From Eledone cirrhosa (taxonomy: Eukaryota): 64,000 nucleotides of DNA. Numbering within the stretch: the first letter of the stretch is position 1; every line of letters begins with the position of its first letter. Below the pieces are notes generated by a model. The model was not told the DNA's origin and did not search any database. It saw only the letters and a program-made list of their open reading frames with translations. The stretch is taken from assembly GCA_964016885.1 (NCBI GenBank), contig OZ024765.1:21266001-21330000 (forward strand), given 5' to 3'. A program made the translations under genes and the position numbers. This document shows, piece by piece, positions 13,474 to 16,979 of this stretch.

Positions 13474-15744
13474 CTATTGGGGTGATAACCCGTTTAGTTT
13501 TGGTTTAAATTTGTTAAGGAATAGATTTTCTTTGTTTATTCTTTGTTGTTGTGTGAACGAATCTGAGCACTTGTAGAAGGGGAAGATTTTAAAGTTGGGT
13601 AGTGTCATTCCTGCGCAGTTCGCAATATGGCTGCTCAAGGGGATTTTTCTTGTGTTAGCGTCCCGGATTTGTTGGCGGTGGATGGTCATTCTTTTGCGTA
13701 ATGAGGTGCCCGTCTGTCCTATGTAGTTGTGTTTGCACCCACCGCAAGTTATTGCGTAAATCAAGTTCTCCGAGTTGCAGGTGAAATTGTTTTTTACTGT
13801 AAATGTTTGGCCATCTTTGAATGTAAATGTTTGTCCTTCAGTGAGGTAGAGGCACGTTCCACAGTTTGTTCTACCACATTTGGTAACTGTAGGGTTGAGG
13901 ATTGGTTTGGGTATATTTGGTCCAGTGAGAATGCGTTTAAGTGATTTGGGTTGTCTTTTACTTTTAAGGATCTTGTGTGTTTCAAGAATAGACTTCATTT
14001 TTACATCTTTAAGTAGGATGGGGAGGTTTTTGTGTAGGTGATCAAACATTTCGGTATTTCTGGGGTTGAAAGTGGATACATATGGCAGGGTGTTGAGTGT
14101 GGTTTTCTGTTTTGGATTGTTAAGTTGATGGGGATTTAGGTGTTTTGCCCTGTCTATTCCATTGTTGATTATTTCAAGTGGAAAGGCTCTTAAGATAAGG
14201 GTGTCTTTTAGTTCCTTTAGTCTTTGCTCCCGTTTAGGTGGATCTGATACTATGGTACGTTTGGCCAAATTGTAAGGAATGTTAAGTTTTGTATGTTTTG
14301 GGTGACTTGATGTGAAAAAGAGGTATTGCTTGGAATCTGTGGGTTTATAGAATATATCTGTATCTAATTTCCCGTCTATTACAGAGATGAGAATATCCAA
14401 GAAGGCTAATTCCTTGGGATTGGATTCCATTGTGAATTGTATGTTATTATCTATGTTGTTTATCATGTTTTTAAACATAGTAAGTGAGTTCATGTCTTCT
14501 TGCCATAGGATAAAGCAGTCGTCTAGATATCTTTTCCAGTTGGCTTTGAGGTGTGTGTGGAAAGAGTCTCCAAATAAGAGAAGGGACTGACTGTATATTT
14601 GTTGTTCATGGAATCCCATGACTAGGTTGGCATATGTGGGTGCTACTTTCGTGCCCATTGCCGTACCTGATACTTGTCTGTATGTTGAACCATTGAATGT
14701 GAAGTAGTTATTTTGTAGGATAAAGCGGAGTCCGTCAGTGATAAAATCTGTGTTGATGCGTGTCGGTATTTCTGATGGGTGTGTGTTAAGCCAGTATTGG
14801 ACTGCTGTTATTCCATAGTTGTGAGGTATGTTTGTGTAGAGGTTTATTACATCAAAGGAGACAAGAATTGTATTTGCACTTACTGTTTTAGGGAGGTGTT
14901 TCAGCATGTCAAGGTCATCTCGTATGTAGCTCTGTATATGTTGTAGAAAGGGTTTCAGTAGGATGTCCAGAAAGTTGCTAAGTCTGTGGGTTTCACATGT
15001 AGGGCCTACTATAATTGGCCTGAGTTTTAGGTCTTCTGGTGGTGTTAGTTCAATGTAATTGTTGGTTGAGGTGTCACATGCATCGTTTATGGGTTTACAT
15101 TTGTGGAGTTTCGGTAAGCCGTAAAAAGAGCTTGTATTGCATTTGAAGTGGCTTATATAGTTAAACTCTTTTGTGGTTAAGCTGTTGCGGTATTTATTCA
15201 GTAAGGTCAAAAGGTTCCCCATTGTTTTGGTGTGTTTGTAGTTTTCTGTTTTTTCATAGTATGTGTTGTTTTCTAAAATGTTAAGTGCGAGGGTCCTATA
15301 GTAGTCCGTATTCATAATGACAACAGTACTGCCTTTATCGGCTTCTTTGATAGTTATCTCAGGGTTGTTTCTAAGTGTGAATAATTCTTCCCATTCGTGT
15401 GTAGATAGGTTTGATTTCGTGTGTTTATTTGTAATTTTTTCATAGGGAAAGTTGGTGATGTGTTCGCAGTACGTGTCCAGTGCTTTATTTCTTCCCTTTT
15501 GTGGGCAGAAATTGCTTTTATTTCTAACCAGTGATTCGTCTTCAGTGTTGGTGTCGTTGTGGAAGAATTCCGTTAGTCGCAGCTTTCGGCAGTATTCCAT
15601 GATGTCATCCTTCATTTCGGGGAAGTTTGGTTTACGTGGTGTAGGTGTAAATTTCAGGCCCTTACTTAAAATGTTGATTTGTGTGTTGGTTAGAGGTGTC
15701 TTTGAGAGGTTGATTATTTTTGGTTTCTCCTGAGGGGGGGCCAT
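13474..15744 (-). CDS. Penelope-like RT + GIY-YIG endonuclease (756 aa)
   Basis: IINLS..LSKGLKFTPTP, ADKGSTVV, FYGLPKLHK, RPIIVG, GTAMGTKVAPTYANL, KRYLDDCF, Cys linker CGRTNCGTC, LIYAITCGGCKHNYIGQT. Confidence 0.95.
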   Translation of the reverse strand: MAPPQEKPKIINLSKTPLTNTQINILSKGLKFTPTPRKPNFPEMKDDIMEYCRKLRLTEFFHNDTNTEDESLVRNKSNFCPQKGRNKALDTYCEHITNFPYEKITNKHTKSNLSTHEWEELFTLRNNPEITIKEADKGSTVVIMNTDYYRTLALNILENNTYYEKTENYKHTKTMGNLLTLLNKYRNSLTTKEFNYISHFKCNTSSFYGLPKLHKCKPINDACDTSTNNYIELTPPEDLKLRPIIVGPTCETHRLSNFLDILLKPFLQHIQSYIRDDLDMLKHLPKTVSANTILVSFDVINLYTNIPHNYGITAVQYWLNTHPSEIPTRINTDFITDGLRFILQNNYFTFNGSTYRQVSGTAMGTKVAPTYANLVMGFHEQQIYSQSLLLFGDSFHTHLKANWKRYLDDCFILWQEDMNSLTMFKNMINNIDNNIQFTMESNPKELAFLDILISVIDGKLDTDIFYKPTDSKQYLFFTSSHPKHTKLNIPYNLAKRTIVSDPPKREQRLKELKDTLILRAFPLEIINNGIDRAKHLNPHQLNNPKQKTTLNTLPYVSTFNPRNTEMFDHLHKNLPILLKDVKMKSILETHKILKSKRQPKSLKRILTGPNIPKPILNPTVTKCGRTNCGTCLYLTEGQTFTFKDGQTFTVKNNFTCNSENLIYAITCGGCKHNYIGQTGTSLRKRMTIHRQQIRDANTRKIPLSSHIANCAGMTLPNFKIFPFYKCSDSFTQQQRINKENLFLNKFKPKLNGLSPQ

Positions 15745-16979
15745 CGAGTATCCTGGTATTTCAGGCTTTTCCCTAAAAAAGGAATGTAGTTTTGTGTGTG
15801 ATTATATTTTGTTGGTCTGTTGCGTGTGGGTCTGTAGCTTGTTGTTTCATGAGGGTGAATGTGATGGTGGGGGTGGTATGTGTTGTGGTTGTTGATGAGC
15901 AAGGGTTCTGTTGTTGGTTCATGTGGTCTGGGTGCGTTATTTCTGTGGTACAGAGTGTTGAGGCTGGGGGGTTGTCTTTTGTTGGATTGAGGGTGATGTC
16001 TGGTGTGGTTGTGGGTAAGTTCTGTTGTGATTTCAAGTGGCCTGGGTGGATTTCTTCTGAGGAATGTGGTGTGTGTGTTGTGAGTTGGATCTATGTTATT
16101 TCGTCGTTGGTTTATGTAGGGGGCATTTCTACGGAAACCTGTGTTGTGGTGGTTGGGTGTGTTTCTTTTGGTGTAGTTGGCCGTATTTGGTTTGTGTTGG
16201 TGGGGGATGTGCCTGTGGTTAGTGTGTGTTGGGTTTGGTGGTGTAAATGTGTCTGTTGTAGTTCTTGTTATGTTCAAATGCTTTATAAAGGGGTTACCTG
16301 TTTGGTGCGTCCTTTTAAAGTCTTCTTCATATTTGAGGAACCAGTTTTCGGATTTTTCCCACCGTTTAAGGGAAATAGTTTCTGCATTCTCGCAGTCCTG
16401 TTTCCACGATTTGATTAAATTTTGTAGGGTTGTTCCCTCGGCCTTTTTAGTGCATTCTTCCTCCATATTTTTATCAGTATCCTTATACTCTTGCTCGTTT
16501 GAGGTGGCCCTTAATTTTAGGAGTTCTATTTCCATGTTTATCCTGTTGAGTGACATTTGTTCACGGAGTTTTCTTTCTGGTTCAGGTTCGTTTGTAATAT
16601 GCTTTATTTGGAATTTACGTGGTAAAACTATCGGTGTTGAGTTAATCCATTTTTGGTAAATTCCAGCTTTGTTGAGGTTTTTTATCATATTCCAGAAAGT
16701 GAATTTTCTGGTTTTTAGATGTTTTTTCCAGAGGTGTCCCATTTGGTTTTTGATATGGAGCAATGTCGTTTGTTCTGTGTTGGTATTCATAAGTTTTTCG
16801 ATGGAGTTGCATACGTTTTGAACGTTTAAATAAATTTGGTTGTCAGTCGGTGTGGTGGTTTGGGGTATATCCTGTTTTTTTGTCAGAATGGTGAGTTTTC
16901 CATTTATCTCTTTTAGGATTTTCAGGATTTCCTCATTGATATTGGAGTTTGAAGTGGTGTTGTCTTGTTCCAGTGCCAT
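15714..16979 (-). CDS. PLE upstream ORF1 (421 aa; helical/coiled-coil N half, basic low-complexity C half)
   Basis: Open non-repetitive frame whose ATG is ~60 nt from the 5' pLTR; overlaps the RT ORF, which is in the -1 frame. Confidence 0.85.
   Translation of the reverse strand: MALEQDNTTSNSNINEEILKILKEINGKLTILTKKQDIPQTTTPTDNQIYLNVQNVCNSIEKLMNTNTEQTTLLHIKNQMGHLWKKHLKTRKFTFWNMIKNLNKAGIYQKWINSTPIVLPRKFQIKHITNEPEPERKLREQMSLNRINMEIELLKLRATSNEQEYKDTDKNMEEECTKKAEGTTLQNLIKSWKQDCENAETISLKRWEKSENWFLKYEEDFKRTHQTGNPFIKHLNITRTTTDTFTPPNPTHTNHRHIPHQHKPNTANYTKRNTPNHHNTGFRRNAPYINQRRNNIDPTHNTHTTFLRRNPPRPLEITTELTHNHTRHHPQSNKRQPPSLNTLYHRNNAPRPHEPTTEPLLINNHNTYHPHHHIHPHETTSYRPTRNRPTKYNHTQNYIPFLGKSLKYQDTRWPPLRRNQK
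15774..15780 (-). promoter_or_regulatory. candidate -1 ribosomal frameshift heptamer U_UUU_UUA
   Basis: ORF1 codons CCT TTT TTA GGG; the -1 frame is open from here into the RT ORF. Confidence 0.7.

Follow-up and report, generated by a model that had tools for sequence, protein, structure and literature searches.

Candidate -1 frameshifting between ORF1 and the reverse transcriptase in an endonuclease-bearing, Neptune-type Penelope-like element of Eledone cirrhosa

A 64,000-nucleotide stretch of the Eledone cirrhosa genome (contig OZ024765.1, positions 21,266,001 to 21,330,000; here called the window) carries on its minus strand a Penelope-like element with two overlapping genes. Its order is pseudo-long terminal repeat (pLTR), first open reading frame (ORF1), a -1 overlap with a T TTT TTA heptamer, reverse transcriptase (RT), C-terminal GIY-YIG endonuclease (EN) and a second pLTR; this arrangement is fixed in the family and conserved in distant families. 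We consider it likely that this EN-bearing, Neptune-type lineage expresses its RT by programmed -1 frameshifting at U UUU UUA. A single unspliced RNA would be translated from the ORF1 AUG, and most ribosomes would terminate 19 codons past the heptamer and release a free helical protein of 421 aa. A minority would slip by -1 on Phe-Leu and produce an ORF1-RT-EN fusion, of 1168 aa in the window copy and 1170 aa in most copies. Gag and the ORF1p of long interspersed nuclear elements (LINEs) package or chaperone RNA and are made in excess over the enzyme, and by analogy the free ORF1 protein, in excess over the fusion, would do the same.

The ORF1-RT overlap in the window element

The coding part comprises the following features:
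15714-16979, minus strand: ORF1, 421 aa, with a predicted all-helical domain (~12-224), a low-complexity N/H/T/P/R tail and a C-terminal F-L...R-W
13474-15801, minus strand: RT-GIY-YIG frame, 775 aa from stop to stop, 756 aa from the ATG at 15744
15774-15780, minus strand: slippery heptamer T TTT TTA, in phase
15752-15765, minus strand: weak CCTG/CAGG hairpin of 4 bp, 8 nt past the heptamer, of doubtful role
15742-15744, minus strand: RT-frame ATG contained in the ORF1 codon pair CGA TGG (Arg-Trp); its ATG form is not conserved
15734-15740, minus strand: C7 run, of unstable length among copies

Recomputed coordinates agreed with the first-pass annotation, which had described a 421-aa ORF1 overlapping a 756-aa RT-GIY-YIG ORF: ORF1 runs from the ATG at 16979 to the TAA at 15716-15714, and the RT frame is -1 relative to it. 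The correctly phased heptamer reported at 15780-15774 was found as well. The codons there read CCT TTT TTA GGG, and the site lies 7 codons past a TAA of the -1 frame and 19 codons ahead of the ORF1 stop. The run of six T occurs only once within the 3.5-kb coding part. Judged by local composition, the chance of T TTT TTA (T6A) in a 28-codon overlap is ~6e-5, and that of any canonical heptamer ~0.2. U UUU UUA is the gag-pol shift site of HIV-1; the likeness that had been extended to the following GGG ends with the window family, since relatives have GAC, GAG, GAT or GAA at this place.

The structure downstream of the heptamer is weak. As had been noted, CCTG (15765-15762) can pair with CAGG (15755-15752), and this pairing exists; its interpretation as a stimulatory stem found no support, as it is a 4-bp hairpin with a weak z score and is not conserved in T6A families. 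Compared with shuffled sequences, the fold has a z value of +0.73 for a stretch of 74 nt and of +1.23 for one of 49 nt; only when it is cut to the first 29 nt does the value fall to -2.15. A simple scan detected no H-type pseudoknot downstream of the window heptamer, and none is conserved in the T6A families, so the pseudoknot proposed as an alternative stimulator is likewise unsupported. Because no conserved 3' structure was found in the window family, slippage there would depend chiefly on the heptamer.

Conservation among copies, families and ORF1 relatives

The element is interspersed in hundreds of copies along many contigs of the 3.0-Gb genome. A 601-nt junction query returned 691 candidates; the 40 that were scored were all near 100% identical, and T6A was present in 30 of 30 fetched. 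Counting exact patterns across the genome gave 184 copies with T6 and none with T7. A looser pattern matched 190 times, with T5 in one and T7 in none of the first 100 listed. Since 184 exact copies carry T6 and none T7, a sequencing error or T-run indel at the heptamer was ruled out.

Two further families, B and C, were found in the same genome through an ORF1 relative. Their RTs are ~57-59% identical, and both have T TTT TTA in phase, with the first RT-frame ATG at +133 (B) and +37 (C) codons. Additional families came from metagenome and genome contigs. A quick tree was built from 47 RT rows, L037 being left out for its broken RT frame. In it, the window element falls into a clade of 11 rows with a Shimodaira-Hasegawa-like approximate likelihood ratio support of 100 and RT identities down to 31%. 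An upstream -1 frame is present in all 11 rows, being only 28 codons long in L039, and 10 of the 11 families have an in-phase heptamer (T TTT TTA in seven, T TTT TTG in two, A AAA AAC in one); the exception is L226. Nine rows have no RT-frame ATG ahead of the conserved N-terminal block of the RT; their first such ATG comes at +133 (family B), +112 (L106), +106 (L044), +46, +37, +25, +18, +18 and +4 codons. The Phe-Leu (FL) pairs at the junctions of this clade are encoded by T TTT TTR in nine of nine cases, compared with 2 of 40 FL pairs inside the RT frames; a product of codon probabilities is not drawn on here, since the rows had been selected for carrying the site. Outside the clade, T6A was also found in L119, L223 and L234. 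The alignment of copies and families proposed at the outset thus showed both the heptamer and the -1 overlap to be conserved, and the expression of a free ORF1 protein together with an ORF1-RT-EN fusion, suggested there, is well supported by this cross-family pattern.

A distant clade swaps to another canonical heptamer, which we count in favour of frameshifting. Here, a -1 ORF of 300-385 codons ends in G GGT TTY, and the ORF1 stop follows 0-2 codons later. Two members, L085 and L100, do not have the full heptamer, and the similarity of the clade's ORF1 to the window ORF1 is not significant (E 0.15). A hairpin 7-9 nt downstream of G GGT TTT has 85.5% of its cells paired and two pairs changed on both sides. 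On a gapped alignment, with the structure chosen by the analyst, three of five measures were matched by 2-5 of 500 shuffles, so that a 3' structure is only weakly indicated; RNAalifold gave nothing useful on the ungapped set. Because the families are related and all come from one assembly, which also reduces their weight as testimony for frameshifting, these shuffle counts are not probabilities. A search of viral contigs yielded no relatives. Several animal Penelope-like sequences are filed under bacterial genomes or symbiont names (L106-L152; P0014, P0045, P0047, P0056, P0092), i.e., the records are contaminated by host DNA.

An AlphaFold2 model of ORF1 residues 1-240 is all-helical, with a mean predicted local distance difference test score of 91. 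Foldseek returned no match to this fold at E<=0.001 in PDB or BFVD. Sequence searches gave only generic coiled-coil matches and no Atlas match, ORF1 has no Pfam family, and none is common to more than 2 of 128 members. Relatives of the helical domain number 1181 clusters at E<=0.001 and 654 at 1e-10; among the best 150 of the 1181, none is longer than 553 aa. From these 150 we retained 98 full-length proteins of at least 300 aa, each its own 50%-identity cluster, and dropped 52 shorter ones. FL occurs in the last 45 aa of 79 of the 98, whereas the two preceding windows, taken as controls, contain it in 4 and 7. Amino acids whose codons are unable to end in T (K, E, Q, M and W) never directly precede FL in the 79 relatives; at background frequencies the chance of this is 5.5e-9.

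The stop comes exactly 10 codons after FL in 24 of the 79, a sharp peak that may mean that the distance from slippery site to stop is constrained. Four other relatives, compared as proteins (P0129, P0133, P0149, P0234), have Y/D/N-F-R in place of FL, at a distance of 12-14 aa from their C-terminus; a motif for +1 frameshifting reads UUU CGN.

Frameshifting and other routes to the RT frame

The fixed phase, the fixed codon choice, the swap to other canonical heptamers and the missing ATGs fit -1 frameshifting, whereas splicing and separate initiation fit them poorly. In the splicing model, TTTTTTAG would be a 3' splice site, and removal of an intron with its donor in the pLTR or inside ORF1 would create the RT message, ORF1 being made from the unspliced RNA. 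The G after the heptamer in the window and at 9 of 10 other T6A sites does yield a pyrimidine run plus AG, the pLTR holds a GTAAGT donor, and introns retained in genomic copies are described for Penelope-like elements in PMC8557442 and PMC4209133. Moreover, one other clade (L047, L058, L062, L064) has a real-looking polypyrimidine-CAG immediately upstream of the RT N-terminus and lacks an overlapping ORF1, which suggests that an intron joins an upstream exon to the RT there. However, splicing needs no fixed ORF1 phase, yet the phase is -1 in 11 of 11 clade rows; L106 and L044 read T TTT TTG T, with no AG; and the residue after FL cannot start with G in 27 of the 79 proteins. The run is exactly T6 without any C, unlike a polypyrimidine tract, and in families B and C a message spliced in the 5' untranslated region (UTR) would find no ATG from which to begin. 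With the exception of one point mutant, no genomic copy was found to have an altered upstream junction, and none of the contig joints listed (19 others lie outside that list) ends at the heptamer. We therefore regard splicing as very unlikely in the window lineage.

Just as improbable, in our judgement, is a separate start of the RT at ATG 15744 or at a near-cognate GTG/CTG there, by reinitiation or from a short transcript, which would make the heptamer a relic or a by-product of Phe-Leu. This ATG has a G at +4 and lies 9 codons ahead of the conserved block, and many database relatives are called with a Met at the equivalent place. Four families have GTG or CTG plus G in this position (GTG in family B, CTG in L031, L038 and L032), and L226, which has a -1 ORF1 relative but no canonical heptamer, has an ATG at -14. 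In yet another clade (L053, L056, L063, L067, L070), a very long upstream ORF in either frame (223-704 codons as far as the contigs reach, several being truncated) is accompanied by an ATG heading the RT frame, suggesting a different coupling of ORF1 and RT, perhaps reinitiation. Against a separate start, NTG-G is simply the Trp codon of the conserved ORF1 tail, [R/N/K]-[W/Y], and is lost where Tyr replaces Trp (family C, L223). The ATG equivalent is absent in family C and L034, and neither L034 nor L037 has NTG-G. Seventeen upstream ATGs and the weak -3 base (T) speak against scanning. Also difficult to reconcile with a separate start are the fixed FL codon choice (nine of nine versus 2 of 40) and the distant clade, which retains a heptamer while the peptide becomes Gly-Phe. 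As a further layout, other clades show one long RT ORF; therefore, the coupling of ORF1 and RT varies among Neptune-like elements, with the -1 overlap as one recurring solution.

The C-run, which lies 35 nt past the heptamer, bears on whether the frames are joined in the DNA of some copies. Among the first 100 of 164 matches, it has the window length in 49; -1 is kept in 64, the frames are fused in 17 and a third frame results in 19. About 40 of these 100 have the run stretched to roughly 9-18 C, with a random outcome for the frame, and of the long-C copies, the eight that were fetched are older, with identities of 97.5-99.1%, and most of them are broken. Two loci (L252, L253) carry an unbroken ORF1-RT-EN ORF of 1170 aa. 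When 42 fetched stretches and the window were placed in a copy tree, C8 copies were scattered and did not form a clade, by which a fused subfamily was ruled out. We read the changes in C-run length as independent slips; fused copies nevertheless exist. The continuous ORF that the first-pass annotation had envisaged for other copies is thus realized in a minority only, through scattered events at the C-run, and not by an indel in the T-run.

We give least credence to a joining of the frames at the level of nucleic acids, either by a polymerase that stutters and adds a U in the T-run or by rare C-run-fused copies that supply the enzyme. The single run X4 contig across the site has T7, the differences between X4 and window 13300-17500 are A>G or T>C in 56 of 61 cases, as RNA editing would give (the kind of run is not on record), and the two loci with an unbroken ORF could be such sources. 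However, the T7 contig has a depth of 4.9 and may be an error, and each genomic copy preserves, as cDNA, the RNA from which it was made, so the T7 count of 0 in 184, like that among the first 100 of the 190 looser matches, disfavours stuttering; the fused C8 copies form no clade, and families B and C have no C-run. As a separate observation, the A>G/T>C excess in X4 is what A-to-I editing of element RNA would give, and X4 may be RNA.

Several points nevertheless weigh against frameshifting. The case is deduced from sequence comparison. Folding downstream of T6 sites is clearly better than in shuffles for only 2 of 13 (L032, z -3.9; L034, z -2.9), and across the T6A families no conserved stem or pseudoknot was found, nor was the CCTG/CAGG hairpin conserved in relatives. 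FL is missing in 19 of the 98 ORF1 relatives, one of the proteins (P0137) continues in frame into RT N-terminal sequence, and the equation of FL with T TTT TTA across the 98 is deduced from the protein sequences. To these are added L226, the fused copies with their two unbroken loci and the T7 contig described above. More tentatively, and with our judgement leaning slightly against it, we propose that a large lineage of hundreds of families of EN-bearing Neptune elements is gag-pol-like: a helical ORF1 would be joined to RT-EN by a -1 shift on a bare U UUU UUA with no RNA stimulator, and the nascent ORF1 tail or the ORF1 protein might assist. In that case, the RT proteins now in databases would be calls that lack the N-terminal part of a 1100-1200-aa fusion.

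Element layout, class and known relatives

Around the coding part, we identified the following features:
17041-17968, minus strand: upstream pLTR with (TA)n/(TG)n arrays inside, a direct repeat by self-BLAST
12079-13014, minus strand: downstream pLTR with a hammerhead-like copy at 12229-12192, ending at a (TA)n tract
17493-17498, minus strand: GTAAGT, resembling a 5' splice donor, candidate donor of a 5'-UTR intron in the pLTR (motif scan)
17154-17191, minus strand: candidate minimal hammerhead ribozyme, U3-A8 core variant (by eye)

The pLTRs are direct repeats of 940 nt at 97% identity (self-BLAST, 17041-17968 versus 12079-13014). A 5'-UTR intron within the pLTR is described for Penelope in PMC8557442. 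By eye, a U3-A8 hammerhead-like core is present in each of the two pLTRs and matches a variant in PMC4209133; its predicted parts are UUGAAAA, helix II GAUGG/CCAUC, GAAA, a palindromic CCGG and UC. In the pLTRs, Rfam returned no hammerhead match, only matches of microsatellites to miRNA models, and the minimum free energy fold does not have a hammerhead shape. In runs X1 and X3, contigs are ~100 times as deep over the pLTR (window 16966-17500) as over ORF1, which exceeds what two repeats would give; there may be many solo or non-autonomous pLTR/hammerhead derivatives, depth being a poor measure here.

The RT frame contains DKG, YGLPK, GTAMG and YLDD (14529) and matches RVT_1 in Pfam (E 8e-7). 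A linker C-x4-CxxC (CGRTNCGTC at 13878), fitting CX2-5CxxC, lies upstream of a C-terminal GIY-YIG endonuclease with two Cys between GIY and YIG (LIY...CxxC...YIG, 13764-13711), and the database relatives of this RT carry PF00078 and PF01541. Two codons of the thumb motif near 14255, kept in 60 other rows of alignment A1 and in other genomic copies, are missing in the window copy, which may therefore itself be impaired. We class the element as a young Penelope-like retrotransposon of Neptune type that carries an endonuclease and whose two genes overlap, Neptune-type being assigned by motifs, as the RT tree contains no named Neptune, Nematis, Athena or Coprina reference sequences. With Neptune it shares direct pLTRs and (TA)n surroundings, and perhaps the hammerhead-like motif, and by eye its 24-aa spacer fits the Neptune and not the Nematis rows in Fig. 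S2 of PMC8557442. Athena/Terminon and Coprina, which are EN-less and attach to telomeric repeats, differ from the window element with its GIY-YIG domain and copies spread along many contigs.

Canonical EN-bearing elements are described as single-ORF in PMC8557442, PMC6431247 and PMC4209133, the second of which contrasts them with two-ORF, EN-less elements; the window family and its clade differ by a conserved ORF1 in -1 overlap with the RT. The two-ORF frameshift plan as such is not new: the Fig. 1 legend of PMC8557442 (Craig et al. 2021) states, naming no clade, that in Penelope-like elements a frameshift accompanied by a pseudoknot can separate ORF1. Those elements share with ours a coiled-coil ORF1 upstream of the RT and the join by frameshift, but the window element bears an endonuclease, exists in hundreds of interspersed copies and showed no pseudoknot. 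The elements meant in the legend are probably EN-less Athena/Terminon. A Fundulus Neptune is reported to have two non-overlapping ORFs, in contrast to the -1 overlap here, and the accessible part of its description does not mention frameshifting (PMC12602865). Nor does frameshifting in EN-bearing elements appear in the accessible parts of PMC3846280, PMC5408684, PMC13159263, PMC5718144 and bioRxiv 10.64898/2026.07.22.740005. A full-text literature search, with key Athena papers and figures outside its reach, retrieved no description of -1 frameshifting in an EN-bearing or Neptune element. Hence, a frameshift after ORF1 had already been named for Penelope-like elements, and the conserved -1 ORF1/RT overlap in an endonuclease-bearing Neptune-type lineage would be the new part. 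Retroviral and LTR-retrotransposon gag-pol is similar in its in-phase X XXY YYZ, short -1 overlap and structural-type ORF upstream of the enzymes. It differs in that sequence and fold searches with ORF1 found no Gag fold, zinc knuckle or protease, and in that the window family has no strong 3' stem.

If frameshifting is correct, the standard single-ORF picture of EN-bearing Penelope-like elements would need correction: the real enzyme would be the ORF1-RT-EN fusion. This would matter for reconstituting the poorly understood transposition of these elements, because an assay supplied only with the RT ORF would be missing a component. The analysis also brings to notice a widespread protein family without a Pfam entry (1181 clusters) and supplies many natural -1 sites seemingly without 3' structure. 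The surprise is limited, since retroelements commonly have a frameshift between a structural ORF and the RT, and one was already hinted at for Penelope-like elements.

Imperfect inverted repeats lie on either side of the element, at 18104-19415 and 10412-10662 (82% and 91%). Farther away, the 6 kb of window 58001-64000 have a very even composition with a GC content of 0.32 and a GC skew of +0.45, and are probably a tandem array.

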